A stretch of 64,000 nt of DNA. It comes from Bacteroidota bacterium. Its GTDB lineage: Bacteria > Bacteroidota > Bacteroidia > Bacteroidales > B18-G4. This document shows, piece after piece, positions 1,152 through 62,246 of the stretch. A model generated the notes under the pieces. The model saw only the letters and a program-made list of their open reading frames with translations. It had not been told where the DNA came from and ran no database searches. The DNA lies in assembly GCA_018831055.1 (NCBI GenBank), contig JAHJRE010000139.1:38380-102379 (forward strand), written 5' to 3'. Position numbers and translations under genes: made by a program. Every line of letters begins with the position of its first letter. Position 1 is the stretch's first letter.

Positions 1152-1197
1152 GTCATGTACAGAAGTGTCGGATCAAGATTTTGTTATTGTTTTTAAT

Positions 1198-1241
1198 ACC
1201 CACCCCCTGGCTGCCGGCAGGGAGGGGGCCGGGGGGTGGGT
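1198..1241. repeat. GC-rich nested palindrome
   Basis: acccaccccc...ggggggtgggt outer arms enclose the perfect palindrome ctgccggcag. The element is very GC-rich against AT-rich intergenic DNA. Confidence 0.5.
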
Positions 1242-1342
1242 AATCTCAGAACACCAAACAGTATTTTATGCTAAACTTCAGTTATTTTAACCCAAGACTT
1301 CCATAGATTTAATGATTCTGACATTTGTTAATCCTATTTCCT

Positions 1343-4774: not shown

Positions 4775-7700
4775 ATGCAGAATCCGAGGATTTTCAAACC
4801 CAAAAACCACATCCGCATTGTTACGGCTGCTTCGCTTTTCGACGGACATGACGCGGCGATCAACATTTTTCGCAGGATCATTCAATCCACCGGTGCCGAG
4901 GTAATACATCTTGGTCACGACCGTTCGGTGCAGGAAATCGTTGATACTGCCATACAGGAGGATGCGCAGGCCGTTGCCATCACGTCTTATCAGGGAGGGC
5001 ATATTGAGTATTTCAAGTACATGCATGATCTTTTCAGGGATGCCGGTTACGGCCATATCCGGATATTTGGCGGCGGTGGCGGGGTGATCCTCCCGGAGGA
5101 GATGGATGAACTGCACGACTATGGCATCACCAGGATTTATTCACCGGATGACGGCCGGCATATGGGTTTGCAGGGTATGATCAATGATCTGATGGAGAAA
5201 TCGGATTTTCCTACAGGAAAGGACATTAAGGTATCCATGGATGACATTCGCAGGAAAGACGTTGGAGCTATAGCACGGTTGATCTCCGCAGCTGAGAATT
5301 TCCCGGAGGAGATTGGCGATATCCTGGAATCTATCAGGAATTATGAAAGAAAATCACCTGTATTGGGTATTACCGGTACAGGCGGTTCAGGTAAATCATC
5401 CATGGTGGATGAGATCGTTCGCCGTTATCTTGCCGATTTCCCAGTAAAAACGATTGCCATCATCTCCGTGGATCCTTCAAAACGTAAAACCGGCGGAGCT
5501 TTGCTTGGTGACCGCATACGCATGAACTCCATCCACGATTCCCGGGTGTTTATGCGTTCCCTGGCTACCCGGCAGAGTAACCTGGCCATGTCGAAATACG
5601 TGAAAGACGCTGAATCCATCCTGCAGGTGGCCGGTTATGACCTTATCATCCTGGAAACTTCAGGCATTGGGCAGTCCGATACCGAGATCATCGACCACAG
5701 CAACCTTTCGATGTATGTCATGACTCCTGATTACGGTGCTGCCACTCAATTGGAAAAGATCGACATGCTTGATTTTGCCGATATCATCGCCCTTAATAAA
5801 TTTGATAAACAGGGTGCTTTGGATGCACTACGTGACGTCAAAAAGCAATACCAGCGTAACCATCAGCTCTGGGATCAGGATCCGGATACCATGCCTGTAT
5901 ACGGTACCATTGCATCACAGTTCAACGATCCCGGCGTAAATCAGCTTTACCGCGGGCTAATGGATAAGATCCGGGAAAAGACAGGCGTTGATTTTCACTC
6001 CAGCCTGGAGGTTCCTGAGGAGATGTCGGAAAAAATATATATTATTCCACCGCGCCGCGTAAGATATCTATCGGAAATCAGCGATACAGTGAGGAATTAC
6101 AATTCCTGGGCTTTAAAGCAAGCGGAAATCGCCGGGAAACTTTACGCCATTAAACAAACTGCCACAGAACTGAAGTCAGAGAAAGATGATACGGCAAGCC
6201 TCACAGCTAAACTGGAAGACCTTTACGACAAAACGGGCCTTGACCTGGATCCCCGCAACCGGGAGATCCTGGAAAAATGGGAAGATAAAAAAGCAGCTTA
6301 TGCAAAAGACGAGTTTGTTTTTGGCGTCAGAGAGCATGAGGTCCGTGTAACAACGTTTTCCGAATCGCTCTCCCATACCCGTGTTCCAAAGGTCATACTC
6401 CCGCAGTCGAAAAACTGGGAGGAGATCATGTTTTATGTGCTCCGGGAAAACGTCCCCGGAGAGTTTCCCTTTGCAGCCGGAGTTTTTCCCTTTAAGCGTG
6501 AAGGTGAGGATCCCATAAGGATGTTCGCCGGTGAAGGCGGACCCGAACGTACCAACAAGCGTTTCCATTATCTTTCGCTAGGCATGCCAGCCCGCCGTTT
6601 ATCAACTGCCTTCGATTCGGTTACCCTGTATGGCCGCGATCCCGATATCAGACCGGACATTTATGGGAAAATAGGCAATTCAGGCGTTTCCATTTGCTGC
6701 CTCGATGATGCAAAAAAACTCTATTCGGGATTCAACCTTGCCGAACCCAAAACATCCGTGTCGATGACCATCAACGGTCCGGCACCCGCGATGGTGGGTT
6801 TCTTCATGAACGCTGCCATTGACCAGCAATGCGAGATATATATCCGCAATAACGGCATGGAAAAGGAAATCACAGATAAAATTGAGAAGATGTATCGCGA
6901 TCGTGGCACGCTTAGGCCCCAATACCAGGGTAAACTGCCTAAGGGCAACGATGGACTCGGCCTCTTCCTCCTTGGCGTGACCGGCGACCAGGTGCTTCCT
7001 GCGGATATTTATCATAAGATCAAAGAAGATACCATTTGCCGTGTGAGAGGGACCGTTCAGGCCGACATCCTGAAAGAAGACCAGGCACAGAACACCTGTA
7101 TTTTCTCTACCGACTTCGCACTTAAGATGATGGGCGATGTACAGGAATATTTTACTCTCAATAATGTCAGAAACTTCTACTCGGTTTCCATTTCAGGATA
7201 TCATATTGCGGAAGCAGGTGCCAACCCCATTTCGCAGCTTGCCTTTACCCTTGCAAACGGGTTTACTTACGTGGAGTATTACCTATCACGAGGGATGAAT
7301 ATCAATGAATTTGCACCCAACCTCTCATTTTTCTTTTCTAACGGGATAGATCCTGAATACAGCGTGATCGGCCGTGTAGCCAGGCTTATCTGGGCCAAGG
7401 CCATGAAGCTAAAATACGGTGCCAACGACCGCTCACAAAAACTGAAATACCATATCCAGACTTCCGGCCGTTCGCTGCATGCCCAGGAAATAGAATTCAA
7501 CGATATCCGGACTACCCTTCAGGCGTTGTATGCTATTTATGATAACTGTAATTCGTTGCATACCAATGCTTACGATGAGGCCATCACTACTCCTACCGAA
7601 GAATCTGTGCGCAGGGCCGTTGCCATTCAGATGATCATTAACCATGAACTCGGACTGGCTAAGAACCAGAATCCATTGCAAGGTTCATACATAATCAGGG

Positions 7701-11105: not shown

Positions 11106-12656
11106 TTACATTTTCAACTCGTCGTTGTTACGGTTATAAAACCGGTATTCCAGGAAATGGTAATTATTATTAGGTTGTATATGGATCCACTTCCTGAATT
11201 TGAAATACCAGCGCAGACGCATTGAGATCATTCCTTTCGTGAGAAAAGCATACAGGTAAGGATGCATGACGATTTTAATATAGTCCTCGTTTTGCTCCTT
11301 CAAAAGATACAGGATATTATTTTCAATCTCATCGGTAAGAATGATGCTTGGTTTGATTTTTCCGGTGCCTTCGCAAACAGGGCATTGTTCCAGGATTTCC
11401 ACACTCATCTCGGGTCTGACTCGCTGCCGGGTTATCTGAACCAGTCCGAACTTGCTGGGAGGCAATATCGTATGCTTGGCCCGGTCTTTGGCCATTTCAT
11501 CCTTTAATTTCTGATAGAGTGTACGCCGGTTCTTACCTTCAATCATATCGATGAAATCGATCACAATGATCCCACCCATATCCCTAAGCCTTAATTGACG
11601 AGCTATCTCTTCGGCTGCTTCCATGTTTACCTGCAGAGCATTGTTTTCCTGGGAAATCTCTTTATTCACCCTGTGACCGGAGTTGACATCGATAACATGA
11701 AGAGCCTCAGTGTGTTCAATTATAAGGTAAACACCACTTTTGATGGTGACTGTTTTTCCAAATGAGCTCTTGATTTGCTTGTCGATACCGAAGTGTTCGA
11801 AGACCGGGGCTTTTCCTTTGTAAAGCTTAACTATTTCCGTTTTTTCCGGGGCGATCCTGCTGATGAACGATTTGATCTCTTCAAAGAGCACAGGTTCATT
11901 TACAACGATGGAGTTGAAAGTGTCGTTCAGTATGTCACGCAGTAAAGCCGTGGTACGATCGAGTTCGCTGGCAACCTTTTGGGGCGGTTTGGCATTCTGA
12001 AGTTTGGTAAGGGCTGAATCCCAGCGGTTTATCAGGTTCCGCATGTCGGCGTCCAATTCTGCAACTTTTTTATTCTCAGCCACAGTCCGGATAATAACCC
12101 CGAAATTATTCGGCTTTATGCTCTGAATAAGCCTTTTAAGGCGATTCCTTTCTTCCGGGCTCTTGATTTTTTGAGAAATGGAAATACGGTTGGAAAAAGG
12201 GACCAGGATGATGTACCGACCGGCAAACGAAAGCTCAGAAGATAGCCTGGGACCTTTGGTAGAGATAGGCTCCTTAACTACCTGAACCAAAATAGGTTGA
12301 TTGGACTTAAGAACCTGGGTGATTTTGCCGGTTTTCTCAATGTCTTTTTCCAGATTGAATGTACTCAGACCGGGAGGAGTGGGTTTACCGGATGTGGCGA
12401 CCTTGGCAAATTTATTCAGAGACCTGACTTGCGGCCCCAGGTCCAGATAATGCAAAAAAGCATCCCGTTCGTATCCTACATCAATGAAAGCAGCATTTAG
12501 CCCGGGCATGATCTTTTTTACCCGACCAAGAAAAATGTCTCCTACGGAGTAATCATTTTTGTAATTTTCTTTCTGTAATTCAACGAGGGTTTTTTCTTCC
12601 AATAGAGCCATATTGACCTCATTGGGCCCGGCGTCGATAATAAGTTCCTTGTTCAC
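11106..12656 (-). CDS. rng: Ribonuclease G/E family (Rne/Rng)
   Basis: An N-terminal S1 domain (GDIFLGRVKKIMPGLNAAFIDVG) is followed by the RNase E/G catalytic core. The start appears to be GTG. Confidence 0.85.
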   Translation of the reverse strand: MNKELIIDAGPNEVNMALLEEKTLVELQKENYKNDYSVGDIFLGRVKKIMPGLNAAFIDVGYERDAFLHYLDLGPQVRSLNKFAKVATSGKPTPPGLSTFNLEKDIEKTGKITQVLKSNQPILVQVVKEPISTKGPRLSSELSFAGRYIILVPFSNRISISQKIKSPEERNRLKRLIQSIKPNNFGVIIRTVAENKKVAELDADMRNLINRWDSALTKLQNAKPPQKVASELDRTTALLRDILNDTFNSIVVNEPVLFEEIKSFISRIAPEKTEIVKLYKGKAPVFEHFGIDKQIKSSFGKTVTIKSGVYLIIEHTEALHVIDVNSGHRVNKEISQENNALQVNMEAAEEIARQLRLRDMGGIIVIDFIDMIEGKNRRTLYQKLKDEMAKDRAKHTILPPSKFGLVQITRQRVRPEMSVEILEQCPVCEGTGKIKPSIILTDEIENNILYLLKEQNEDYIKIVMHPYLYAFLTKGMISMRLRWYFKFRKWIHIQPNNNYHFLEYRFYNRNNDELKM

Positions 12657-17091: not shown

Positions 17092-19434
17092 ATGAAAAAG
17101 ACTGCCTTGCTTCTATTGCTTTCCTTACAAATCACTTTTCTTCTTGCTCAGTCCGATATCTATTCCAGAGTGGAGATCAGGGCCGGCAAAAGTCAGATAA
17201 TTAATATGCTTAATCAGGGAATAGCACTTGATGATGCTTTCCTGGAGAAGGAAAACCTGATTATTGCCGAACTACCGCAATCTGATTTGCTGAAGCTTTC
17301 ATCTCTTGGTATCGATTATGAGGTTCTTATTTCTGATGTGACGGCATTTTATATCCAACGAAATGAAATGACCGGTGATTATGTGATAGAACGCGGGATA
17401 GGAGAATACCCGGTTCCGGAAGATTTTGAACTGGGTTCCATGGGCGGGTTCTGTACTTACGATGAGATGATTACGCATCTTGATAACATGCATACTAAGT
17501 ATCCTGATCTCATCACCGCAAAACAGGTAGCAGGAACTACCCTGCAAGGACGCGATATATACTGGGTGAGGTTATCCGATAACCCGGATCAGAATGAAGA
17601 TGAGCCGGAAGTATTATATGACGGCCTGCATCATGCCAGGGAAGGGATAGGACTGCAACTCCTGCTGTATTATATGTATTATCTCCTGGAAAACTATGAT
17701 ACCGACGAAGAGGTGCAATACCTTGTGAATAACACGGAAATGTATTTTATCCCGGTTATCAATGCCGATGGCTATGTTTACAATCAGACTACCAATCCAA
17801 ATGGTGGCGGCATGTGGAGGAAAACACGCCGGGATAATGGTGACGGTTCCTATGGGGTTGATCCGAACAGGAACTATGCTTACATGTGGGGATATGATAA
17901 TAATGGCTCTTCTCCCATCCCTTCTGATGAAACATACCGGGGTCCCTATGCTTTTTCTGAACCTTGTATCCAGACTTTAAGAGATTTTACTATTGATAAC
18001 GAGTTCGGGATAGCCATGAACTACCATTCTTATTCCAATCTTTTACTCTATGCATGGGGATATACGGAAGATCCTTGTCCTGATGACGATATATTCTCGG
18101 CCTTCGGACAGATTATGACAAGTGAAAATGGCTATGCTTATGGCGCCGGTAGCACAACCATTTATCCTACCAACGGTGGTTCCGACGACTGGATGTATGG
18201 CGAACAGGGTGAAAAACCGCTGATCTTTGCCTTTACCCCTGAAGTCGGAAACTCCAACGATGGATTCTGGCCTTCGGTCGACAGGATCATTCCCCTTTGC
18301 CAGGAAAACATGTATGCCAACCTGATGGCTGCTCATTTCGTTGGCTACTATGCCAGTGTTGATGAGACATCCCCGGCCATTATCAGTAGTACCGAAGGGA
18401 GTATTAGCTTTACCATAAAAAGACTGGGACTAAAAGACGGAGCTACGTTTTCCGTATATCTGGCCGCTATTTCACCTGAGATTATTTCGACAGGTATGCC
18501 GTTGGTTTTTAATGACCTTGCTATGCTGCAAACCGAAGAAGGTTCTGTTTCCTTTACTCTGGATCCCAATATTCAGAATGGCACACCTCTTTCATTCCTG
18601 TTACAGGTGGATAATGGATTGCATGTTACTTCCGATACCGTAAACAAAGTATTCGGACAAGCCCAGGTACTTTTTGAGGATGATGGCTCCAATATGAGCA
18701 AATGGACCTCTCCTAAATGGAATATCACATACGAAGCCAGTCATTCGGCTCCAACTTCCATCACCGATTCTCCTAATGCTAATTATTTAAGTAACAGCAA
18801 CAGCAGCGTTACCACAAATACTGAAATTGACCTGAGTGATGCAGTTTTTGCCGTTCTGAATTTCTGGGCGAAATGGGAGATTGAAGCAGGATGGGATTAT
18901 GTTCAGGTAAAAGTTTCTGATAATGGAGGAAGTACCTGGACGGCACTGGATGGTATGTATACCAAACCCGGCAACAGTAACCAGGCTCTGGGCCAGCCCT
19001 TATACGACGGGTACCAGACCGATTGGGTAAAAGAAGAAATTGATCTTAGTGATTACCTGGGTGAACAGATAAAAATCAGATTTACAATCCGTTCTGATGG
19101 TTACATTGAAGAAGACGGTTTCTATTTTGATGACCTGACGGTAATGGCAATACCCCAGAACGGAGTGGGTATGCCCGATCCAACCGGTGATAATGATTTG
19201 TATTCCATTCACCCTAATCCCGGAAACGGTATTATTTTCCTGGAAACATCGGAAGATATGAAGGCAGGAACGGAATTTACTGTTTTTAGCCTGACCGGTA
19301 AAACAGTTTACTCTTCAGAAATATTAGGGAGAATTTCCAGGATAGATGTTAGCGGTTGGGAGCCCGGTATTTACTTTGTCCGGATAGAAGGAGCAGCAAT
19401 TCATCCTTTCGTCAGGAAACTAATCGTTTATTAA
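17092..19434 (+). CDS. M14 family zinc carboxypeptidase with T9SS C-terminal sorting domain
   Basis: ORF 17068..19434 opens with TTG; the likely start is ATG 17092 (MKKTALLLLLSLQ). The M14 zinc site context (HHAREGIG) and a later NYHSY block are present. The C-terminal IHPNPGNGIIFLE...GIYFVRIEG is a T9SS CTD. Confidence 0.85.
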   Translation: MKKTALLLLLSLQITFLLAQSDIYSRVEIRAGKSQIINMLNQGIALDDAFLEKENLIIAELPQSDLLKLSSLGIDYEVLISDVTAFYIQRNEMTGDYVIERGIGEYPVPEDFELGSMGGFCTYDEMITHLDNMHTKYPDLITAKQVAGTTLQGRDIYWVRLSDNPDQNEDEPEVLYDGLHHAREGIGLQLLLYYMYYLLENYDTDEEVQYLVNNTEMYFIPVINADGYVYNQTTNPNGGGMWRKTRRDNGDGSYGVDPNRNYAYMWGYDNNGSSPIPSDETYRGPYAFSEPCIQTLRDFTIDNEFGIAMNYHSYSNLLLYAWGYTEDPCPDDDIFSAFGQIMTSENGYAYGAGSTTIYPTNGGSDDWMYGEQGEKPLIFAFTPEVGNSNDGFWPSVDRIIPLCQENMYANLMAAHFVGYYASVDETSPAIISSTEGSISFTIKRLGLKDGATFSVYLAAISPEIISTGMPLVFNDLAMLQTEEGSVSFTLDPNIQNGTPLSFLLQVDNGLHVTSDTVNKVFGQAQVLFEDDGSNMSKWTSPKWNITYEASHSAPTSITDSPNANYLSNSNSSVTTNTEIDLSDAVFAVLNFWAKWEIEAGWDYVQVKVSDNGGSTWTALDGMYTKPGNSNQALGQPLYDGYQTDWVKEEIDLSDYLGEQIKIRFTIRSDGYIEEDGFYFDDLTVMAIPQNGVGMPDPTGDNDLYSIHPNPGNGIIFLETSEDMKAGTEFTVFSLTGKTVYSSEILGRISRIDVSGWEPGIYFVRIEGAAIHPFVRKLIVY

Positions 19435-28870: not shown

Positions 28871-29335
28871 TTATTGCATCAACACGCTTTGAACCGGATA
28901 CCAGAAAACACCAATCAGCAATGCCGTGAGCAAGGGCCGTATCATGTTTTTCCAGGTTGTGTTCTTCCTGGCAAAAATGTTGTATCCATGGTTAATAGCC
29001 GATTGTAACAGAAAAAGCAGAAAAGTAAGCACAAGGGTTACATTGGCCATAGGATTCCAATGGGCAAAATAAACAAGCAGAGCCATGAGGGCAAAGGATA
29101 AGAAGGCAAATCCCGTCTGTTTCTGGTAATCGCTGCCTTGCTCGTAACCGGTTGCTTCTGCGGCTTTTTTTGCGAACAGAAGTCCTTCGATGGCGGAAAA
29201 CCCCGCGATGGAACCAAGGATCCAGGGTGTCATGATGTGCAGGATCTCTTCGGGGGTATCTCCAAGGTAATATGCCAGGAATATGCCAAGTCCAGTTCCG
29301 ACGATTCTAAGGATTTCAAGGATTTTAATGATCAT
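28871..29335 (-). CDS. Hypothetical integral membrane protein
   Basis: 154 aa with about four hydrophobic helices. I recognise no motif. Confidence 0.5.
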   Translation of the reverse strand: MIIKILEILRIVGTGLGIFLAYYLGDTPEEILHIMTPWILGSIAGFSAIEGLLFAKKAAEATGYEQGSDYQKQTGFAFLSFALMALLVYFAHWNPMANVTLVLTFLLFLLQSAINHGYNIFARKNTTWKNMIRPLLTALLIGVFWYPVQSVLMQ

Positions 29336-29353
29336 GGGTATATGGTTTATGGG

Positions 29354-31024
29354 TTATTGTTTTGGTTTGTTTCGACTCAAATTGACTTTGTCCAGTTTCC
29401 ATGCATTCAGGAAACCGAGTTTGACAATGCGTGTCATCTTATCGATGTTAACCTTTTCGATCTCATCCGTAGGTTGATGGTAATCGGTTGTAAAGCCGGC
29501 CATAAAGAATGCGAAAGGAATGCCTTTCATGGAGAACGGAGCATGGTCGCTGCCTCCACGTCCGCCTTCCGATGCACGAAATCCGATATCCAGGCCCAGT
29601 TCATGGGTTTCATTGTTCTTTTTGCTTATTTCTTCCAGGATGGGATGTGATTTGGAGTAGGAAAGGGAACATTTGTTTTTCAGGGTATCGTTGCGGGAAT
29701 CCCGTGAGATCATATCGAAATTCAGGTTGAGCAGAATGTTCTCCACGGGTTTTACGGGATGGTCGACGAAATAGCTTGAACCAAGCAACCCCATCTCTTC
29801 GCCTGTCCAGGCTGCGAAAACGATTGTCCGCTCCGGCTGTTCGCCGGTTGCAAGAAAGGCCCTGGCGATGGTCATTACACCCACAGTGCCGGATGCGTTG
29901 TCATCGGCCCCGTTCCAGATGTAGCCATCGTGAATGCCGAGGTGATCGTAATGGGCGCCCAGCACGATCAGCGAATCAGGATTTTTCCCTTCGATCATAC
30001 CGATTACATTGCGTGCTGTGACGATCTCCGATTCCATTGTTGTCACAAATCCGGCCTGTTTCCCGAAAATCTCCTTCGACATGGGTTTGGGCCGCGCTGC
30101 TATTGATTTATGGAATTCATCAGGATGGATGCCCGAACCATCGAGGAGGAGGTTCATGATGGCAGGGGTGACCCGGATGATCAGGGGATTGGTCTTCAGG
30201 GTGTCTTCCGGAAGACTGAAATCGTATTCATAAGGTGATTCCAGCTCTTCAGGGCCTTCATAAATAGCGGATTTAAAGCGGAATGGCAGGTTAACTGTCC
30301 AGTCTTTCTGTATGCCTTCATAACCGGGTTCAATAACGGCGATGGCTCCTCTTTCACGGGCTTCCTTATTCTTGTCGCGGTTGAGATAATAATACCCATA
30401 CCGGCCTTCCGGATGGAATTTGCGGAAGGCTTCGGAGGCTGTATCGTTAATTCCCGGGAACCCGGCAAGACGGATGATGATCTTGCCGCTGACGTCCACA
30501 CCCTGGTAATCGTTGTACCCTTCCTTTTCGTTCACATACCCGTAACCCACAAAAACCACCGGTGCTGCCCCGCTCATGCTTACCGGGGGCAAACTGCCGA
30601 ATTCGAAGTCTGTCTTGTAGGTGAAATGAAAAGTAGATTCACCATTCTTGTTTTTCTTTGTCACGGAAAGATGCTGTTCCTTGCCGGCTTTGCTTTTGAT
30701 CAGACTGAATTCCTGGAAAAAGGAACGGTATTTTTCGGGTTTCTTCCCTTCCCACCGTTCTTCCCGCGTAAGTTCCGTAAAACGGTAATCCCCGGCCGGG
30801 GCCAAACCATAGATCTTGAATATGCTCGCGATATAATCCCCGGCGATAAATTCACCCTTAGTACCTGTCTGACGACCTTCGGTCCAGTCGGAAGAAAGGA
30901 ACTCAAGCTGGCCCTGAACGGCTTCGGTGGTGATGGCTTCGAGGCCTTTGGTTGCGGGGTCTTCCTGGGAATACACCCACGAAAAGCATAATGCAAACAT
31001 CAAAATAGCGAAGATCTTTTTCAT
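29354..31024 (-). CDS. M28 family metallopeptidase (aminopeptidase) with PA-like insert
   Basis: A signal peptide is present. The M28 zinc-ligand blocks are GAHYDHLG, GADDNASGTVGV, FAAWTGEEMGLLGS and SDHAPF. Confidence 0.8.
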   Translation of the reverse strand: MKKIFAILMFALCFSWVYSQEDPATKGLEAITTEAVQGQLEFLSSDWTEGRQTGTKGEFIAGDYIASIFKIYGLAPAGDYRFTELTREERWEGKKPEKYRSFFQEFSLIKSKAGKEQHLSVTKKNKNGESTFHFTYKTDFEFGSLPPVSMSGAAPVVFVGYGYVNEKEGYNDYQGVDVSGKIIIRLAGFPGINDTASEAFRKFHPEGRYGYYYLNRDKNKEARERGAIAVIEPGYEGIQKDWTVNLPFRFKSAIYEGPEELESPYEYDFSLPEDTLKTNPLIIRVTPAIMNLLLDGSGIHPDEFHKSIAARPKPMSKEIFGKQAGFVTTMESEIVTARNVIGMIEGKNPDSLIVLGAHYDHLGIHDGYIWNGADDNASGTVGVMTIARAFLATGEQPERTIVFAAWTGEEMGLLGSSYFVDHPVKPVENILLNLNFDMISRDSRNDTLKNKCSLSYSKSHPILEEISKKNNETHELGLDIGFRASEGGRGGSDHAPFSMKGIPFAFFMAGFTTDYHQPTDEIEKVNIDKMTRIVKLGFLNAWKLDKVNLSRNKPKQ

Positions 31025-31156: not shown

Positions 31157-31248
31157 ATATTTGCAGAAAATTGGTTTTGTGCAAATAAATATTGTTATAT
31201 TTGCAGGAAATTAGATAAGTGCAAATAAGATGATTTATATTCGCAGAT
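31157..31248 (+). promoter_or_regulatory. 40-bp-phased operator-like repeats overlapping the Fic promoter
   Basis: Two 33-bp units (31157-31189 and 31197-31229) match at 27 of 33 positions. Each contains the palindrome TTTGCA-N14-TGCAAA (31160-31185 and 31200-31225). A third partial unit, ATATTCGCAG, starts at 31237. Unit 2 carries a perfect TATATTTG -7 box (31196-31203). Confidence 0.55.
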
Positions 31249-32382
31249 ATGTATATTAGGGATTTTATATCGGGAAAACAGGAGAAGCAATATCAGTACA
31301 GGAGTTTTCTGCCCAATCCCGTTAATCATGCCTGGATTACGGCTGATGAGAAATTGGACCATATGTTGAGCAGGGCGAACATCTGTTTGGGAGAATTGAA
31401 TGCTTTTTCTTCACTGGTGCCTGATGTTGATTATTTCATCAGGATGCATGTCCAGAAGGAGGCGTTGACGAGCAGCAGGATAGAAGGGACACGTACCCGG
31501 CTGGAAGAGGCATTACAAAAGGAGGAGTATATTGATCCGGAAAGGCGGGATGACTGGCAGGAGGTCAGGAACTATGTGCTGGCAATGAATACAAGTATTG
31601 AAAGCCTTTCCCGTTTGCCCATCAGTGGCAGGATAATCCGGCAGGCACATAAGGTACTATTGCAAGGAGTAAGAGGGGAGCATAAGCAGCCCGGTGAATA
31701 CCGTCAGTCACAGAACTGGGTGGGTGGCTCATCAATTCAGGATGCGCTTTTTATTCCTCCGCATCACACAGAGGTACCGGAGCTCATGAGTGACCTGGAA
31801 AAATTTTTGAACAATGAAGACCTGATGATTCCTGATCTGATAAGAATAGGGATTGCCCATTATCAGTTTGAGACCATACACCCATTCCTGGATGGTAATG
31901 GAAGGATAGGACGATTGATCATCACATTATTCCTGGTTAGCAGAAAGGTTTTGACCAGACCGGTGCTTTATCTCAGCGATTTCCTGGAGAAAAACAGGGT
32001 TCATTATTATGATCGTCTTACCCGTGCCCGTGTTCAGAACGACCTTGCTCAATGGCTTATCTTTTTCCTGGAAGGTGTAAGACAAACAGCAGAAAATTCA
32101 ATTATCACTTTCCGTAAGATCATAGATATGAGGCAGCGGCTTGAAACCCATGATATGCCCAAGCTCGGGAAAAAGGCACCTTCAGGCATGGCTTTGCTGC
32201 GGTTATTATATTCACAGCCGGTAGTGGATGGTAATGATGTTGCAGAAATGTTGAACGTGAACATCTCCACAGCCCTCAGGATGATCTCAGATTTTGAAAA
32301 GCTGGGCATCTTGCAGGAAATGACTGGTTACCGGCGTAACAGGGTATTTATTTTCGGGGAATATGTGAGCCTGTTTGGGTAA
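31249..32382 (+). CDS. Fic family protein (AMPylase/Fido domain) with N-terminal inhibitory motif and C-terminal winged-helix-like region
   Basis: The Fic motif HPFLDGNGRIGR is present. The N-terminal TSSRIEGT matches the (S/T)xxxE(G/N) auto-inhibition helix. The C-terminal ~80 aa look wHTH-like. Confidence 0.85.
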   Translation: MYIRDFISGKQEKQYQYRSFLPNPVNHAWITADEKLDHMLSRANICLGELNAFSSLVPDVDYFIRMHVQKEALTSSRIEGTRTRLEEALQKEEYIDPERRDDWQEVRNYVLAMNTSIESLSRLPISGRIIRQAHKVLLQGVRGEHKQPGEYRQSQNWVGGSSIQDALFIPPHHTEVPELMSDLEKFLNNEDLMIPDLIRIGIAHYQFETIHPFLDGNGRIGRLIITLFLVSRKVLTRPVLYLSDFLEKNRVHYYDRLTRARVQNDLAQWLIFFLEGVRQTAENSIITFRKIIDMRQRLETHDMPKLGKKAPSGMALLRLLYSQPVVDGNDVAEMLNVNISTALRMISDFEKLGILQEMTGYRRNRVFIFGEYVSLFG

Positions 32383-32452: not shown

Positions 32453-32600
32453 TTAGTTAAAATAAACTTCCAGGTCAATGATCTTGTTTCCTTTTTCAAT
32501 GACAAAATCCATTTCAAAGTTCCGCTGCCGCCAATAGTAGACCCTAAAACCCTCTTTGGCAGAGTAATTGAGTAAATGAGCGCCTAAATATGTCTTTCAT
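32453..32600 (-). pseudogene. Remnant of an AAA/DUF4143-type ATPase gene (C-terminal fragment, frameshifted)
   Basis: The reverse strand encodes ...FRVYYWRQRNFEMDFVIEKGNKIIDLEVYFN followed by a stop. This resembles the C-terminus of the intact ATPase at 49331..50461 (YFWRTYTGAEIDYIEEKGGKLYAYEI). The upstream piece is in another frame and stops early. Confidence 0.45.
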
Positions 32601-32719
32601 AATGGTTGGCTCAATCAACGCATCCAGCATGTATTGTCTCCATCTGTTTTATCAGGGTTGTTTTACAGGATTTCTTGATTTTCTTATTGTGGGGTAGAGT
32701 AAATTGGTGAGATGCTGGG

Positions 32720-32840
32720 CAGGTTACAGGTTGCAGGCTGCAGGTTGCAGGAGTTTGGGTTTGAGTTATGAGTTATGAGTTATGAGTTATGAGTTTAGCT
32801 TCCTGCAGCTTGAAACCTGTATCCTGTAACTTGAAACCTG
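32720..32840. repeat. Heptanucleotide-phased three-block array forming a long imperfect hairpin
   Basis: Seventeen in-phase 7-mers: CAGGTTA CAGGTTG CAGGCTG CAGGTTG CAGGAGT TTGGGTT (TGAGTTA)x4 TGAGTTT AGCTTCC TGCAGCT TGAAACC TGTATCC TGTAACT TGAAACC. The last block is the inverted complement of the first. Confidence 0.8.
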
Positions 32841-32862: not shown

Positions 32863-35085
32863 TCATTTCACCAAAACTTTAATATTCCATGAAGCATTTT
32901 TCCCCATTGCCCTTATCACATACATCCCTGCCGGCCAGTTGCTTACATCGATCTCGTGGATCATGGGACTGCCTGCGGTTTTGGTGATTTGCCGGTTGTA
33001 AACTGTTTTCCCGAAGGAATTGTATACCGCTATTTCGCTTTTCCCCTCCAGATTTTCATTCAGGAGAAGATTAATGCGGTCGTGAGCCGGGTTGGGAAAA
33101 ACGGTGATTCCTGGATCCTTTATTGCATTATCGCCAATTCCCACCCCAGGTGACGAAAAATGTATCCCGTCCAGCCACAGCTCAAAGCCATATTCCCAGG
33201 TGTCGGCGTGGAATTCCAGGAAGGAGATATCGCTGAAGGAGACATTGCCAAATATTGTCCGGCTCCAGGGGGATGCTCCGGTCAGCGGGATAGCGTAATG
33301 CTTCCACTGGTTCATGGTCGGGTTCAGGATGGTGCCGGCAGAAGCCGTGTATTTGTAATACCCCCCGCAATCATTTCCCAGGATGAAATTGCAGTACTGG
33401 AAGCCATATCCTGTGTTGTTCACGCTCCTGATCCACAGGAACAAGGTGTCGGTTTCATGCAGGGCCCAGGATGCGATGGAATCACCCCCCGGCCGGTAAA
33501 GCATGCCCAGGTCCCAGCCATTGCCGGTACTCAGGTGTATGGAGGCGTTCCCTTCCTTTTTGTTGACCGTATCCCAGGATGTGATGGTCGGTTCCCAGAG
33601 ACCATAAGACCAGCAGGCTTCAGGGTATGAAAACCAAACAGCCGGGGGCTCAGCAAGATCGGATACAGGGATGTGCTGCCAGGCAGGATCCGGGCCGGGG
33701 GTGAATGGATGCCAGATAACCTCGCCTACCGAAGAATTATCGTGGATGTCGTAAATATTACATGCGATCACATCTTCGTCGTTCAAACCGAAATCATTGG
33801 CTACCGCATATATTTCCTGGGTGCTCCGGTTCTCAATGTGATAAAAGGTACTTCTTTTAAAAAGGTTTCCGGTAATGGTATCATGCTGTGCTTCTCCTTC
33901 AATGTAAATACCATTGCGGTTTTCCAGGATGTCGTTGTGCTTCACGATCAGGCCTTCCGTCTTTTTGGCCGAGATGGCAATGGTATTCCCCTGTATGGTA
34001 TTTCCCAGGATTTGGTAATCGTGGGAATATTGATTCTGGTAGGGAGGAATCCCGTCTCCTTCCCAAAGCTCTATCCCTGTGGGGTTTTCGTTGATGATAT
34101 TGTGCGTGATCGTATTGTTGTATCCCCTGTCGATGGCAATGCCGGAATGTTGATTGCCGATCACCTCGTTGCTGTCGACCAGGCTGTTGAATGAATAACC
34201 CAGCCAGAACCCGTAATGGCTGTAGTTACAGAGGTTGTGTTTGTAAACATTGCCATCGGCAAAAGTGGCCTCAATCGCGTTGTGCGGCGAATAGGAGCAA
34301 TCATTGTAAGCGAAATAGTTGTTGTTGGGTATGCTCGAATATTCATATTGTCCCAGGAAAATGCCATCGCCGGAATAGGTGAAGTCATTGTGCACAACCG
34401 TGTTTTCGTTGGATACGATCAGCAGGATGGCCGCACAATCGCTCGGGTCGGTTTCACGGTTCACATGGCTGCAAACATTGTGATGGATGTAGCAGGAATC
34501 GGTAAAATTCATCCGGATACCAAATCCTGTGTTCCAGTTCAGGATATTGTCGTGGATATGGATACTATCGCAATCATACATGGCCACCCCGTCGTTCTGT
34601 TGCTGCATAGTGTTATCGAAGACTTCCACTGCCCGGCACTGGTCCATCAGCACACCACCACCCAGTGCTGAATTTACGCCGGTCCAGATAGAGATCCATC
34701 CTGTGGTATCTTTTTTATTATGTGAAAACACATTCCCGTTTATGATGATATTATGCGAATTTTTAATCTTAACGGCATAGTAGTAATCTTTTACCATTTC
34801 GAAATTCCGGATGATGATGTCATGTGAATTCTCAATAATGGCCATGTAACCCTGGTCATCCGCGCCGTTTACGGTTACGCTGTCGCCATCGATGATGATG
34901 TTGTGTTTGTTGATGATGCGGATGACCCCGTCTTTTTCAGGATCAGGGAAATTATACGTGCCACCTATGATGTTATACCAGGAACCGCTGGGAATATCCC
35001 AGTTGTCCTGAAGGGGTATATATTGCTGTGCTGAAAGGCTTGAATACAGGAATAATCCTGAAAGAATTACAATGATATTTTTCAT
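32863..35085 (-). CDS. Right-handed parallel beta-helix repeat protein with T9SS C-terminal sorting domain
   Basis: ORF 32863..35112 opens with TTG; the likely start is ATG 35085 (MKNIIVILSGLFLYSSLSAQ). It has repeated NxxIxxN beta-helix turns (NSHDIIIRNF, NSHNIIINGN, HIHDNILNWN, ITHNIINEN). The C-terminal VFPNPAHDRINLLL...GMYVIRAMG is a T9SS CTD. Confidence 0.8.
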   Translation of the reverse strand: MKNIIVILSGLFLYSSLSAQQYIPLQDNWDIPSGSWYNIIGGTYNFPDPEKDGVIRIINKHNIIIDGDSVTVNGADDQGYMAIIENSHDIIIRNFEMVKDYYYAVKIKNSHNIIINGNVFSHNKKDTTGWISIWTGVNSALGGGVLMDQCRAVEVFDNTMQQQNDGVAMYDCDSIHIHDNILNWNTGFGIRMNFTDSCYIHHNVCSHVNRETDPSDCAAILLIVSNENTVVHNDFTYSGDGIFLGQYEYSSIPNNNYFAYNDCSYSPHNAIEATFADGNVYKHNLCNYSHYGFWLGYSFNSLVDSNEVIGNQHSGIAIDRGYNNTITHNIINENPTGIELWEGDGIPPYQNQYSHDYQILGNTIQGNTIAISAKKTEGLIVKHNDILENRNGIYIEGEAQHDTITGNLFKRSTFYHIENRSTQEIYAVANDFGLNDEDVIACNIYDIHDNSSVGEVIWHPFTPGPDPAWQHIPVSDLAEPPAVWFSYPEACWSYGLWEPTITSWDTVNKKEGNASIHLSTGNGWDLGMLYRPGGDSIASWALHETDTLFLWIRSVNNTGYGFQYCNFILGNDCGGYYKYTASAGTILNPTMNQWKHYAIPLTGASPWSRTIFGNVSFSDISFLEFHADTWEYGFELWLDGIHFSSPGVGIGDNAIKDPGITVFPNPAHDRINLLLNENLEGKSEIAVYNSFGKTVYNRQITKTAGSPMIHEIDVSNWPAGMYVIRAMGKNASWNIKVLVK

Positions 35086-35436
35086 AACTGCCGGTTTTGG
35101 TTTCGAATGCAAAAGGTAAAGATTTTTTTTGGATATTTAAAAATCCCTGTTTATTTTTGGAGTCTCATTACTTGCCGATGAAACCTATCATCATTACCGG
35201 CTTTCTTTTTGTGACCTGCTAAGGTCATACCGGACATATTCATCCGGTTGTTTTCGGAATTATTTCCCGGAGCTTTTTTTCAATTAACATATTTTTTATT
35301 CATCAAAATTTCGGAGGAAAAACCATGAAAAATCAAATTACCCTTATGCCAGGATTTGTGATTAACATCCTTTCGGGCTGTTATGCCCTGATAAACCATT
35401 TGAAACTGTTAAATCCCAATCAAAAACGAAAACGAA

Positions 35437-49330: not shown

Positions 49331-50461
49331 TTAAATAACAAACTCCCAAAAGTTATCCCTGGTAATACTCTTATAATTGTCTCCATATTGCTCTACCCAT
49401 GTTTTAGGAGCAATTTTCCTGGCTTTTTTGTATTTTATTTCATAGGCATATAGTTTTCCGCCCTTTTCTTCAATATAATCGATTTCGGCACCGGTATAGG
49501 TTCTCCAGAAATAGGAGGAAAGGAAATTCTGAGTGTATTCCAGGTATTTAAACCTTTCTGAAATGATGAAATTTTCCCACAATGCTCCAACATCATTTCT
49601 AATATTGAAACTATTGAAGTTTTCTACCAAGCAGTTTCTGACACCAAGATCCCAAAAATATATTTTATTTCTCTTAGATACCTCTTTCCTGAGATTCCGG
49701 CTATAACCACCTAAGCGGAATATGATAAATGCTTTTTCAAGTAATTCAATATATGATGCCACGGTTTCCTGGCTTAGCTTCAGGTTCAGTGCAAGCTCGT
49801 TGACGGATGTTTCAGAGCCGATTTGAAGCGCCAGTAGTTTTAAAAGCGATGAAATCTTTGAATTATTTTTTATTGATGATAATTCGAAAACATCCTTATA
49901 CAAATATGCAGAAGTAAGTTCACGTAAATACTTTTCTTTGGAATGGCCTGATGTGTGATGAAAAATCACCGGATACATGCCATATATCATGTATTCTTCC
50001 AACTTGCTTTGTAGTTCAAATGCATTGACTTGAACAGACAATTCAGATAATGAGATCGGATACAGAATATGAGTGGAGGTTCGCCCTGTCAGTGGTTCCT
50101 TGACTTTGTTTGCCAGATCAAAAGATGAAGAACCTGTTGCAAGAATTTTTAATGAAGGCCAATTGTCATGAATTATCTTCAGGTTGATGCCTATATCAGG
50201 AATTCTTTGTGCTTCATCAATAAAGAGAATGTCATATCCTGATACCAATAACTTCATACGATCAAGGTCACGTGAAGAGAGTACATCTGCATATTTTATC
50301 TCATCCGCATTTATTTTAAGTACTGATTCACTTGTACCGCTCAGGACATCATTGGAAAGTGTTGTTTTTCCGGTTTGCCTTGCACCATATAAAATAATGA
50401 TGTTTCTGTTGTTTTTCAGGTCTTCCTGGATAGAATTAAATATTTTCCGGACTATTTTCAT
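49331..50461 (-). CDS. AAA-type ATP-binding protein with DUF4143-like C-terminal domain
   Basis: Walker A is YGARQTGKTTL and Walker B is ILFIDEAQ. The C-terminal block YFWRTYTGAEIDYIEE is typical of this family. Confidence 0.8.
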   Translation of the reverse strand: MKIVRKIFNSIQEDLKNNRNIIILYGARQTGKTTLSNDVLSGTSESVLKINADEIKYADVLSSRDLDRMKLLVSGYDILFIDEAQRIPDIGINLKIIHDNWPSLKILATGSSSFDLANKVKEPLTGRTSTHILYPISLSELSVQVNAFELQSKLEEYMIYGMYPVIFHHTSGHSKEKYLRELTSAYLYKDVFELSSIKNNSKISSLLKLLALQIGSETSVNELALNLKLSQETVASYIELLEKAFIIFRLGGYSRNLRKEVSKRNKIYFWDLGVRNCLVENFNSFNIRNDVGALWENFIISERFKYLEYTQNFLSSYFWRTYTGAEIDYIEEKGGKLYAYEIKYKKARKIAPKTWVEQYGDNYKSITRDNFWEFVI

Positions 50462-50608
50462 AGAACAAATTTTGGAATAAAGGTAGTAAATTCACGTGAA
50501 AATTTCAAATCAATTCGAAATATTCACGTTAAATTTTCGAATGAATCTTAAAAATTCAGGGGAATCTTTTATCATGGAGGAGAATTATCTGCTGATTAAG
50601 ATATGGAG

Positions 50609-56144: not shown

Positions 56145-59100
56145 TCACAGTGCATCCTCTATTTTTTTCAGGTCTTCCCTGCAGGAAATGGTATATTCAT
56201 GATCATCTCCCAGGGTGCCGGCGATGACTGGTATCTCCTGACTGAGCATATCGTATGCTTCCCTTAATCTACCTGATGCATAGAGGATATTAACCATCTT
56301 AACTGTTGATTCTATGCTTCGCATATGTTCTGCTCCCAGGTTTTGGAGGTAGCTGTTTCTTGCTTCTGAAATGGCAGTCATGGATTTTTCCAGGTTGTTT
56401 TGCCTGTAGAGCATATCAGACATTTTTTCTTTTGCATAGGCTACATCCAGGATTTTTTCCAACTGGTTGAACAACTTTATGGATTTCTCGAAATAATGCT
56501 CAGAAAATGCGTATTCTTCTGCATTGCCTAAGATTACCCCGGCATCGCGGCTCAGGTCTGCTGCTTCTTCCACGGCATTTATTTTCAGGAAGGATTCAAT
56601 AGCATCATCAAACCTTAATCCTGCTGATTCATTGCGCTTCAGTGCTGCAAGCGATTTGGCAATATTTCCCATTCTCAGCGCTTTTTTATACACATCATCC
56701 GAATCCGAAAGCAAGTCGAGTGATTTCTTATAGTTTTCAAGGGCGTCCTCGTACTTTCCCATAGCCTGATAAATGACCCCGAGGTCGTTCAAATGGCCTG
56801 TCAAACGGGTTTTATCACCGGTAAGCTCGTCCATTTCAATTGCCTGATGGATAGAATTTATTGCATTTTCATAGTCTTCCTTTAACTGGTACACATAGCT
56901 GATGGAGCTATAACGGTCCGACATCGATAAGGCATCATCCAAACTTTCATCAAGGATCAGGGCCTGATAAAAATGCTTCAGGGCCATGTCGTAATCACCT
57001 TTTGCCTGATAAGCCTGGGCAATGTTTTTCTGATGGAAGGATTGCTGAGCGCGGTCATAGATTTCCTCATCGATTTCAACTGCTTTCATATAATATTCGA
57101 TGGCCTGGTCGTAATCCCTTTTGCTGTAATAAGCTGCTCCGATATTGTTGAATTTATCGACCATTTCATTCCGGTTACCCAACTCTTCATCAATAGATAA
57201 GCCTTGCCGGTAATATTCAATGGCATCATCGTAGAATCCCATGATCTGCTGTAGTTGCCCCATGTGATAATAATCGGTTGACTGGCTGTGCAGATTGTTT
57301 GCCTTAACATGGATGTCGAGCGATTTCCTGTAATAGTCGAGCGCTTCTTCCATCTGGCCTGAATTCCTGAGAAGAAATCCCAATGTGGAATATATTTCAG
57401 CCAGTTTTCGTGAATAATCATCACTGCATCGGTCGTAAGCTTTTCCGGCTTCTTTATAATAAACCAAAGCTTCCGGAATATTATCCAGTTCCTGGTATAA
57501 TACTCCCAGGTTGGCCAGGTAATCTCCGGCAACACCGTAATCATTCTGGTTTTCAGCGATCGTTACCGCGATTTTTGCACTTTCCAGCGCCTGTTCTTTT
57601 TGTCCGGCCAGGAACAGTATTGTGCCTATGTTATTGTAACTTCTTGCTATCAATGATTGATCCTGTGCTTTCTTGGCAGCTTCCAAAGCCTGATGATAGT
57701 GATTATAGGCTTCCTGATAGTCGGGTACGTAACGGTAAATTTCTCCCAGGCTGTTTAGGTTCACAGCCTGATGATAAGGATCATCTTTATCTAAAGCCAG
57801 GGAGAGAGCCTTGTAGTAATAGTTAAAGGCTTTATTTCTCCTTTGTTGCCTGGTTTCAACATCTCCTTGCAATTCAAGGGTTTTAATCTTACAATCAGCA
57901 TCAAGATAGTTTTCATTGGCTATTTCCCAGGCTTGCTCGAGATAATAATCCGCATCCGACAAATAGCCTTGCGAAAGTGCTTCAGCGCCAAGTTCCTGGT
58001 ATAACTCCCACGATTTCCTGAAATAATCGCCGGACTCCTCAGTCCTTTCCATTCTTCCATATATCCTTCCCAGATTTCCTGCACAAAAAGCCATGTTGGA
58101 GATATCCCCGTTATCTCTGGCGGTATGGAACCCTTTCAGGTAATACTCTGCTGCTTTATCTTCCTGTTCGTTGAAGCTGTAAGAAGCTCCAATATTGTTG
58201 TAATAGATGGAAAGGTTATCCTGAATATCATGTTTCTCAGCAATTTCAATGGCTTTGGTGAAGTACACTATGGCTTTATCGGGTTTCTCCATCTCCTGGA
58301 AACAACGTCCTGCATAATTATAATCACGGGCTGCTTCTTTCCATTTCTCCTGCGTTTTAAACTCATCCGTTGCCTGCAGGAAATACTCCAGGGCATGTTC
58401 GTATTTACCGGGCGACATGGATATACTGCCCATCTCATGAAAGATATCTCCCAGTTTTTCATTATTTCCGGTTTTTCGCAGTATCATCGCCGCCTTATTG
58501 AATAGTTCAATAGCCTGGTCATGGTTACCTGTCTGGGTTTGACAATCTCCCATATTATAAAGGATGTCGGACTGAAACGATTCTTGTACCGGATTGCTTG
58601 CCAGGTCCATGGCAAGTTCATAATACCAAAGGGCTTCGCTGTAATCTCCCTGGCTATGGTACATCCTGGCCTCATTCAGGTATTTATCTAATAAAGAAGC
58701 CCTGGCTTGTTTCATTTCCTGGGTTGGATTTTTAATTTTTTCCCTTAGTTCAAATAATTCGAGTTCTTTGATTGCTTTGCTGTTCTTATCGTTTATCAGG
58801 GGAATTGCAAGTTCCAGTTGTTCTATGGCTTGTCCGAAAAGGGATTGCCTGGCGTACAGTTTGGTCAGGGAATCGCGGAGAACCACTTCATTTTCTGTTG
58901 TGCCGGCGTGGCCGTTTATGGTCAGGGCAATGCTGTAATGCTGGATGGCATAAGATTCGTTGATCTCGATCAGCATTTTGGCCAGGTTCTGGTAGTTTTC
59001 AAGCAGGATACGGCGTGTTCCCGGACTGGTTTCCAGGATCATACGTTTGGAGAAATAGCTGAGGTATTCGTGTTTGAACAGGTCTGCTGCTTTTTCAAGA

Positions 59101-61985: not shown

Positions 61986-62148
61986 GATTAAAATTTTAGA
62001 ATAGTCTTAATTGCAAGTTTTCAGATTGTTATCTTATTGTTGTTCGTGAATTACCTTTTCTTCAGCTTTAGGGGCTCAAAATACAAATTTCCCGACAATG
62101 AAAAGGCGAAATATCTATTGATTTTCGGGATATGGTAGCAAATAGTTA

Positions 62149-62246
62149 CAGGTTTCAGGGTTCAAGTTGCAGGTTGCAGCCTGTTACCTGTAACCTGTAA
62201 CCTGAATCCTGAATCCTGTCGCTTGCAACCTGCACCATGGAACCTG
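62149..62246. repeat. Heptanucleotide-phased inverted array (CAGGTTN / NAACCTG), second locus
   Basis: Fourteen in-phase 7-mers: CAGGTTT CAGGGTT CAAGTTG CAGGTTG CAGCCTG TTACCTG TAACCTG TAACCTG AATCCTG AATCCTG TCGCTTG CAACCTG CACCATG GAACCTG. It lies in the divergent region between the STAND gene and the gene starting at 62375. Confidence 0.8.

Follow-up and report, generated by a model that had tools for sequence, protein, structure and literature searches.

What is the 121-nt element at positions 32720-32840 of a 64-kb stretch of contig JAHJRE010000139.1 (hereafter the window), and why is it built of 7-nt units that fold back on themselves? The contig was assembled from a metagenome and belongs to the metagenome-assembled genome (MAG) of an uncultured member of the Bacteroidetes/Bacteroidales. 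The element, which we call array 1, is intergenic and lies next to the stop codon of a gene for a beta-helix cargo protein of the type IX secretion system (T9SS). A first-pass annotation of this DNA had described it as a strictly phased array of three blocks forming a long hairpin, and had offered three mechanisms for its origin: a nucleic-acid-binding protein with a 7-nt register, slippage plus inversion, or a mobile hairpin element. We read array 1 as a heptanucleotide simple-sequence-repeat (SSR) array in the form of an inverted pair, grown by slippage, prone to recombination and tolerated just after stop codons. The probability of this reading is, in our estimate, about 0.6.

Array 1 is made of three parts:

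32720-32754: left arm, five CAGGTTN-type heptamers (CAGGTTA CAGGTTG CAGGCTG CAGGTTG CAGGAGT), from the sequence, Tandem Repeats Finder (TRF) and the minimum-free-energy fold.

32755-32803: loop block, with the junction TTGGGTT, TGAGTTA x4, TGAGTTT and the junction AGCTTCC, from the sequence, TRF and the folds.

32804-32840: right arm, TGCAGCT TGAAACC TGTATCC TGTAACT TGAAACC TG, of the reverse-complement CAGGTTN type, from TRF, the parse into units and the folds.

The three-block, 7-periodic structure is real. Identity of the 121 nt with themselves was 0.71 at a lag of 7 nt and 0.63 at a lag of 14, versus 0.17-0.28 at the other tested lags from 3 to 13. TRF reported three adjoining arrays, at 32719-32751 (period 7), 32751-32795 (6.7 copies of period 7) and 32801-32840 (1.9 copies of period 21). 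The right arm is best seen as a duplicated 21-nt triplet of heptads, in which CTTG variants are present. By TRF and lag-7 identity, array 1 thus consists of head-to-tail tandem 7-nt units in at least three to four copies, as heptanucleotide SSRs do. The layout given by the first-pass annotation (five CAGGTTN units facing five TGNAACC units) holds for the blocks but not for the exact units, since CAGGTTN fits three of the five units of the left arm and TGNAACC two of the five of the right arm. Its parse into 17 heptamers without phase slip can be reproduced, but the weight placed on strict phasing was an over-reading: the blocks differ in unit and the junctions TTGGGTT and AGCTTCC can absorb any offset, so the absence of a slip says little.

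Repeats and palindromes are classic trouble for assemblers, and one could suspect that array 1, or its exact number of units, is an artefact of metagenome assembly. A contig from an independent assembly of a different sequencing run (Logan SRR6514730, L001) indeed ends within the TGAGTTA block. Yet the same contig reproduces exactly the first 72 nt of array 1, on its left side, together with the flank. The window contig was assembled with k = 141, longer than any perfect repeat in array 1, and comparable arrays are found in isolates (Neolewinella agarilytica DSM 24740, Flavobacterium spp.). An artefact is therefore extremely improbable.

The long imperfect hairpin proposed from the letters was confirmed by folding array 1 both as RNA and as DNA. 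The RNA fold had a free energy of -66.1 kcal/mol on the + strand (z -7.1) and -43.2 kcal/mol on the - strand (z -3.8). As single-stranded DNA the two strands were alike (-25.4 and -23.3 kcal/mol, z -4.8 and -4.0). In the minimum-free-energy fold the left arm pairs with 32804-32840. The loop block (unit TAACTCA when read on the - strand) has no pairing in the DNA fold or on the - strand; in + strand RNA it is partly self-paired via G-U pairs. We dropped this G-U asymmetry as a sign of a functional RNA strand, because in array 1, as at an orthologous locus (L123, see below), it is the antisense strand of the beta-helix gene that folds better, and because the asymmetry is gone with DNA parameters. 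A known RNA family was rejected for array 1. Rfam gave nothing in the window at gathering thresholds, and its E-value mode returned only models of plant microRNA precursors, i.e., long hairpins, at a sub-threshold 24 bits versus thresholds of 95-135. A canonical intrinsic terminator, with its short G+C-rich stem, loop of 3-8 nt and following U-tract, is less clearly dismissed. The terminator scan did not call array 1, and the sense strand of the beta-helix gene lacks a U-tract (the + strand has CCCCCCTTTT); the short hairpin of L123 does have A- and T-tracts on its sides.

Our survey of this genome covered 81.5 kb, i.e., the window and adjoining contig DNA, including 7.5 kb beyond its left end. 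It contains four inverted heptad pairs, and many more arrays were found in relatives, so that array 1 is not peculiar to the two loci (array 1 and array 2) recognised at first. The other three are:

62149-62246: array 2, five CAGGTTN units followed directly by about ten NAACCTG-type units, the unit being that of array 1.

2440-2498: array 3, GATCGNA / TNCGATC around the 7-nt loop AATGTAA, from the periodicity scan, TRF and the fold.

L165 18534-18703, on the same contig about 4 kb past the left end of the window: array 4, TTCTGTA x6, an 86-nt spacer and TACAGAA x3, folding at -67 kcal/mol.

The four pairs use three unrelated arm units (CAGGTTN twice, GATCGNA, TTCTGTA/TACAGAA), to which the TGAGTTA unit of the loop is added. 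Among periods 5 to 10, strong tandem signal in the 64 kb was found at period 7 only (29 windows of the scan versus 0). All four pairs form significantly stable RNA hairpins, and arrays 1-3, which were tested with DNA parameters, are stable with these as well. The array at 62149-62246, already noticed as sharing the unit of array 1, forms its hairpin over about 62148-62219 (-56.1 kcal/mol, z -7.9), with the other units of the right arm unpaired. By their folds, these are inverted arrays of one unit that lie close together and can form stem-loops, as do the convergent pairs described in Xanthomonas (Rehm et al. 2015, PMC4692102). The 26 CAGGTTN-type units of arrays 1 and 2 are fixed at positions 1, 2 and 4 and near-fixed at 3 and 6, whereas 5 and 7 vary freely. 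A GGG tract is absent from all units here (CAGGTTN, TGAGTTA, GATCGNA, TACAGAA); hence, without a tract of three or four G, no G-quadruplex is expected.

The four loci are intergenic, dispersed and typically near the end of the upstream gene, as is usual for this class of SSR. Array 1 ends 22 nt from the stop codon of the beta-helix gene. Array 3 occupies a 67-nt gap between convergent stops, 5 nt and 3 nt from the stop codons of a gene for a T9SS protein with a C-terminal domain (CTD; 1325-2434, +) and of a gene for an iron-sulphur (Fe-S)/CCG protein (2502-4586, -). Array 2 lies between divergent genes, STAND/TPR (56145-61985, -) and AlgX-like (62375-63829, +); the search for relatives of this locus gave no homologue of the AlgX-like neighbour above 38% identity.

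Indications of how such arrays behave came from relatives. One of them, L128, encodes an Fe-S protein 95% identical to that of the window, and its intergenic DNA is near-identical elsewhere. At the site of array 3 it has 12 in-phase GATCGNA heptads in a perfect stem (-64 kcal/mol as RNA, z -11.5 as DNA), where the window has about nine heptads and -32 kcal/mol. Unit number and order of the variants therefore differ at the same site between flanks that are about 95% identical. The flanks of this array are collinear, but its core in L128, made of the loop and the inner unit (GATCGGA AATGTAA GATCT), aligns with the other strand of the window, so the core has been flipped. At the site of array 4, L128 kept TACAGAA x3 alone, and a piece of the adjoining spacer is reversed (L165 18566-18627 matches L128 18331-18270 in inverted orientation). 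The DJ-1/PfpI gene of L128 has lost about 17 N-terminal codons at this strand-switch junction, and synteny stops there. Number and sequence of units thus vary among close relatives, as expected of SSRs (array 3 in the window versus L128, array 4 in L165 versus L128). At the two loci that allow comparison, what lies between the arms is inverted, having opposite orientations in two relatives at 95%. More distant relatives differ further. In L129 (83%) the convergent genes overlap at the site of array 3 and the hairpin is absent. In L131 (78%) a GAGAAGA/TCTTCTC heptad hairpin stands at the end of the Fe-S gene. We downgraded this shared position as a sign of selection and did not count it as conservation, because L131 has six arrays in 22 kb, which makes coincidence plausible.

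Among the three mechanisms offered at first, these comparisons favour slippage plus inversion. We suggest that arrays would grow and shrink by replication slippage in steps of 7 nt, given the differences in copy number. The inverted partner arm would arise, and stay similar, by intrastrand template switching or by arm-to-arm recombination on an extruded hairpin; we infer this from the mirror-perfect arms of L128, the two flips and the strand-switch junction. The same process between arms would flip the loop and turn such sites into hotspots where DNA is deleted or inserted. As regards the invertons of Bacteroidales (site-specific invertible segments with a cognate recombinase), inverted arms are present here, but the window has no recombinase gene, and a loop of 7 nt, as in array 3, would be too short for a conventional invertase. 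Arrays would then build up in the first few tens of bases past stop codons, where their expansion spares promoters, as suggested by the stop/start asymmetry described below and by the rarity of arrays between divergent genes reported in Xanthomonas.

The prominence of period 7 extends well beyond this genome. A scan for CAGGNTN x4 (20 specified bases) in one genome per species, over 185,579 species, for which about one chance match was estimated, gave at least 120 loci among the matches listed, in many phyla. The order of the matches is unspecified, and their distribution (Bacteroidota, Acidobacteriota, Planctomycetota, Chloroflexota, Lentisphaerota, Desulfobacterota, Gemmatimonadota and others) is that of a sample. 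The units in the matches listed were CAGGGTT, CAGGTTT, CAGGTTG, CAGGATT, CAGGCTA and similar, and many loci were multi-block with an unrelated second heptamer. We removed the selected arrays from 830 kb around 120 of these loci; 138 arrays of period 7 remained, versus 1-28 at each of the periods 4-6, 8, 9 and 11 and none at periods 10 and 12. Period 7 is thus over-represented both in the window, where it is the only one, and in array-bearing genomes (138 versus 28 or fewer at each other period in the range 4-12). The 143 arrays comprised 105 distinct units, a count that includes five loci from relatives of the window organism. These genomes thus have no sequence in common, but they do share the period of 7 nt. 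Many phyla have inverted pairs, [unit]n-spacer-[reverse-complement unit]n, with many different units (e.g., L008, L020, L024, L030, L037, L067, L070, L072, L087, L097 and L106); most heptad arrays in the wider sample are direct-only.

This diversity of units bears on the proposal that the arrays are binding platforms for a nucleic-acid-binding protein, contacting DNA or RNA in a 7-nt register. The conservation of units at positions 1-4 and 6, with freedom at 5 and 7, resembles a recognition profile, the more so as it is also that of the Xanthomonas GGGANTN units; in the wider sample, however, the CAGGNTN profile is imposed, at least in part, by the search pattern. CAGGNTN-type arrays do recur across many phyla, and for TAACTGA arrays a post-transcriptional regulator, with binders of the S1, Csp or CsrA-like kind, has been proposed (MacGregor 2015, PMC4679880). 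But a sequence-specific binder would have to recognise at least four unrelated units in this genome and the 105 units found elsewhere, and the number and order of units change freely between relatives at 95%. Moreover, the Pfam scan of the long open reading frames (ORFs) of the window linked no candidate binding protein to the arrays. Because the units are so diverse, we consider such a protein improbable.

Two related Bacteroidales MAGs, L126 (5777-5912) and L131, are very rich in heptad arrays with other units. Those of L131 lie, within 22 kb, at 1027-1083, 4212-4251, 6478-6513, 12084-12189 and 18553-18592. The units in the two MAGs include GCAGTTG/GCAGTAG x19, CCTGTGA, TTCACGC, TTGACAR, GAGAAGA and TATTTGC. 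Most of the arrays begin a few bases past a stop codon, and the one at 1027-1083 of L131 is within the called 3' end of a MutY-like gene.

The neighbourhood of array 1 adds a rearrangement that occurred next to it. The genes concerned are:

32863-35112, - strand: beta-helix (NosD/Beta_helix) T9SS cargo gene with a Por_Secre_tail domain (Pfam).

31249-32382, + strand: Fic gene, in an islet between the beta-helix gene and an M28 peptidase gene.

About 32467-32607, - strand: fragment of a DUF4143 ATPase gene, coding for the C-terminal part (PF13635, positions 112-157 of the 160 in the profile, E 1.1e-6).

Array 1 does bound this islet, as the first-pass annotation had it. The Fic gene and the ATPase fragment adjoin the array, and the 5' part of the ATPase gene is missing on the side facing array 1, which therefore marks the point of truncation. 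The fragment was detected by Pfam on its translation, whereas a tblastn search with the intact ATPase found no match in the spacer beside array 1. The orthologous loci L123 and L125 lack the islet; there, the beta-helix gene is directly followed by the M28 peptidase gene. The islet-free L123, a relative at 63%, nevertheless has a short hairpin with the unit of array 1 about 57 nt past the stop of the beta-helix gene (GTTGCAG GTTACAA GTTTCAG ... GCAACCC GTAACCC GCAACCT), flanked by A- and T-tracts. Hence, the Fic gene and the truncated ATPase gene were inserted beside a hairpin that is probably older, which places array 1 at the boundary of a rearrangement. Beyond these loci the comparison thins out. 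The nearest homologue of the beta-helix protein is 65% identical, the metagenome scan gave relatives of 40-63% only, and an exact-protein look-up with P0001 found no match. A heptad array stands 3' of the beta-helix gene in three of the 28 more distant orthologous loci, with a different unit in each.

Could array 1 instead be a small mobile hairpin, inserted by the beta-helix gene and responsible for bringing or bounding the islet? It would then resemble MITEs (miniature inverted-repeat transposable elements) or repetitive extragenic palindromes (REPs), moved by a REP-associated tyrosine transposase (RAYT) or a transposase of the IS200/IS605 type. Array 1 borders an inserted islet and has the form of a long imperfect palindrome, and other small hairpin insertions relative to L128 occur in the same genome (window 1152-1283, L165 16495-16615). 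It shares with MITEs, and with REPs and the bacterial interspersed mosaic elements (BIMEs) that they form, its intergenic position after a gene; REPs can also stabilise the upstream mRNA. Those elements, however, have one family sequence, defined ends and a cognate transposase, whereas the units here vary by locus. Flank-versus-flank BLAST of arrays 1, 2 and 3 gave chance 7-16-mers only and no target-site duplications. Arrays 1 and 2 have in common only their heptad units, with no terminal repeats beyond the array itself. The Pfam scan of the window's long ORFs (about 40), which encode housekeeping and T9SS cargo proteins, found no transposase, RAYT, Y1 transposase, reverse transcriptase or recombinase. 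We accordingly rejected both candidates, i.e., a MITE, as copies share nothing but heptads, and a REP/BIME with a RAYT, as units differ by locus and the long ORFs scanned include no Y1 transposase. Since defined ends, duplications and, in the ORFs scanned, a transposase are all wanting, and since L123 already has its CAGGTTN hairpin without the islet, the mobile-element proposal is hardly credible.

Arrays are closer to stops than to starts. Among the 82 arrays between same-strand genes in all fetched loci, the median distance was 17.5 nt to the upstream stop and 60.5 nt to the downstream start. The stop was nearer for 51 arrays and the start for 27 (p = 0.009, paired test), and as the starts in foreign loci were those of the longest ORF, the real bias towards stops is probably larger. 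This agrees with the Xanthomonas arrays, whose mean distances are 28 nt to the upstream ORF and 160 nt to the downstream one, and which are rare between divergent genes (PMC4692102), and it does so in a broad sample.

Such positions would also suit another explanation, namely that selection keeps the hairpins as factor-independent bidirectional 3'-end elements (terminators, barriers to 3' exonucleases, or both), the heptads merely lengthening their stems. Arrays 1 and 3, at 22, 5 and 3 nt from stops, do lie between facing gene ends. However, array 2 and the TACAGAA array of L128 are between divergent gene starts, and hairpin-type arrays showed no enrichment between convergent genes in a crude ORF-based classification. 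After the beta-helix gene, the CAGGTTN hairpin of L123 with its A-tract and T-tract looks like a bidirectional terminator, and STRR hairpins of cyanobacteria have been proposed to stabilise or terminate transcripts (PMC2670836). The hairpins of the window, by contrast, lack U-tracts on the relevant strands and were not called by the terminator scan, the better-folding RNA strand of array 1 and L123 is the antisense one, and 25 of the 28 more distant loci have no heptad array after this gene. Past the Fe-S gene, a heptad hairpin is present in the window, in L128 and, with another unit, in L131; but the overlapping genes of L129 do without one, and in the array-rich L131 the coincidence could be due to chance. 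Finally, most heptad arrays are direct-only and unable to fold. On balance, maintenance by selection as 3'-end elements seems to us possible but rather unlikely.

Under the slippage reading, an effect on transcripts would be secondary. If transcribed, array 1 would give a very stable hairpin in the 3' untranslated region, which would hinder read-through and 3' exonucleases as a side effect, for the beta-helix gene and for transcripts coming from the Fic side. Such a 3'-hairpin effect is plausible for arrays 1 and 3, but neither required nor general, given the divergent context of array 2, the lack of U-tracts, the hairpin-free relative at 83% and the predominance of direct-only arrays.

Heptad arrays are elements of a known kind, as are the hairpins made by inverted pairs of them, and this extends to some Bacteroidetes; the lineage and the units are new. 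Mrazek, Guo and Shah (2007), as relayed in PMC4679880 and PMC4692102, found heptanucleotide units to be the commonest class of long SSR in many genomes and proposed polymerase slippage over a contact of about 7 nt as the cause. Their survey, so far as these two papers convey it, is statistical and without inverted-pair hairpins, flips or Bacteroidales. The closest parallel is Xanthomonas, with about 185 GGGANTN arrays per genome, of which 89-93% are intergenic, and 70-75 convergent, stem-loop-capable pairs per genome (PMC4692102). The positions of these arrays are common to the species but their lengths and sequences vary, and no function was found. The units (GGGAATC / GGGANTN in Xanthomonas, GGGGAYT in Nostoc) are conserved at positions 1-4 and 6 (PMC4692102). 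The arrays here are alike in having tandem 7-nt intergenic units near the end of the upstream gene, inverted pairs, variability at the same site and conservation at positions 1-4 and 6. They are unlike in that their units are CAGGnTn or unrelated and lack the tract of three or four G, and that their host is a Bacteroidales MAG. In addition, array 1 has a second, unrelated heptamer block in its loop, and flips and rearrangements were not reported in the Xanthomonas paper.

The likeness to the STRR repeats of cyanobacteria, drawn by the first-pass annotation, is apt. Hairpins of 7-bp STRR repeats occur between genes in Nostoc/Anabaena, e.g., between hupS and hupL and upstream of hoxW (PMC2670836). 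As here, STRRs are intergenic 7-bp tandem repeats with several unit types per genome, some of which form hairpins between genes. Unlike STRRs in the strict sense, which are defined in heterocystous cyanobacteria, the arrays here have other units and a Bacteroidales host. Mazel et al. reportedly gave the STRR units in 1990 as CCCCAGT, TTGGTCA and CAACAGT.

The statement that no equivalent was known in Bacteroidota did not survive a look at the literature. Direct repeats of the heptamer TAACTGA were described in Beggiatoaceae, cyanobacteria and five Bacteroidetes (Gramella, Aequorivita, Elizabethkingia, Flexibacter and Paludibacter), with "other heptamer direct repeats" in the same spacers (MacGregor 2015, PMC4679880). 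Contigs often ended in these repeats, and a role in gene rearrangement was suggested (PMC4679880). The sets are mostly direct, forward and immediately upstream of start codons, with one inverted set in the BOGUAY genome, and TAACTCA is given only as a non-repeated variant (PMC4679880). Our arrays resemble them as intergenic heptamer arrays in Bacteroidetes, and the loop unit of array 1, read on the - strand as TAACTCA, is one base off; it is unlike them in standing inside a hairpin after a stop codon, and it is not TAACTGA. For the CAGGTTN-type units themselves, our literature search found no bacterial paper.

Several points weigh against slippage and tolerance as the explanation. Flips were seen at two loci, in a single pair of genomes. 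Where perfect arms exceed the k of the assembler, the orientation of a loop is ambiguous, which could affect the GATCGNA flip of L128, but does not touch the k = 141 contig of the window or the TACAGAA locus. Across conserved anchors the window and L128 differ in length by 17 nt, no clean multiple of 7, so that other small indels are involved. The step of 7 nt is not accounted for, and slippage is deduced from differences in copy number and not observed as such. Pure slippage does not predict a unit profile like that of Xanthomonas GGGANTN, conserved at 1-4 and 6 and variable at 5 and 7. The ORF calling behind the distances to foreign genes is crude, and unreliable in G+C-rich genomes. Lastly, L123, at 63% identity, has a short hairpin with the unit of array 1 behind its beta-helix gene, which could reflect long-term retention and hence selection.

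Among long simple repeats, those with heptanucleotide units are the most over-represented in many bacteria. The present case extends them to an uncultured Bacteroidales lineage and contributes new units, among them the widespread CAGGnTn type. Several observations bear on mechanism: the period is kept while the sequence is not, copy number changes, cores flip, and arrays coincide with a deletion, a break of synteny and an islet. Those on turnover, flips and rearrangement, drawn from sequence comparison, are preliminary but useful; if they hold, the arrays are best viewed as gene-end hotspots where the genome is locally unstable. In practice, such arrays break assemblies and can be taken for structured RNAs, terminators or invertons; the number of their copies could serve as a strain marker. 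One may speculate further that inverted heptad arrays are self-renewing "flip-flop" modules, independent of recombinases, that shape the architecture of gene ends in many phyla, although we think this unlikely. If it were true, the extruded hairpin would template the symmetry of the arms, invert the DNA between them and seed deletions and islet insertions. The Xanthomonas-like unit profile would then reflect a common molecular ruler, such as the footprint of a polymerase or repair complex, and not chance; and flipping could work as a phase switch wherever a promoter lies between the arms.

Some other repeats and hairpins were observed along the way. In the distant relative L158, the first 170 nt past the stop of the beta-helix homologue contain a long-range heptad hairpin (-70 kcal/mol), with another unit at the same gene end: GGCAAAG GGCAGGA GGCAGAA, a spacer of about 100 nt, and CTTCTGC CTTCTGC CTTTTGC CCTTTGCC. 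In the islet beside array 1, a 40-bp tandem repeat of 2.3 copies at 31157-31247 (TATTTGCAG...GTGCAAATAA) stops just short of the Fic start at 31249, and could represent a module of the islet, operator or promoter, in repeated form. The window also encodes an intact AAA_14/DUF4143 ATPase (49331-50461, - strand), of the same family as the truncated fragment, and a 32-bp tandem repeat of 2.2 copies lies directly upstream of its start (50488-50558). A weak ATGGGTT-type heptad run of three units is found at 29334-29362, in the 18-nt gap region between the genes for DUF6790 and the M28 peptidase (both on the - strand).

Two insertions relative to L128 were mentioned above. The one in L165 (16495-16615) is 60 nt long, with TTATATTG tandem repeats on both sides and a short CCCGAC...GTCGGG hairpin. 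The other, of 132 nt at 1152-1283 of the window, lies upstream of the T9SS CTD gene; it is non-heptadic, folds at -55 kcal/mol, includes a G+C-rich palindrome at 1199-1240 (CCCACCCCC...GGGGGTGGG), and may be a small inserted hairpin element.

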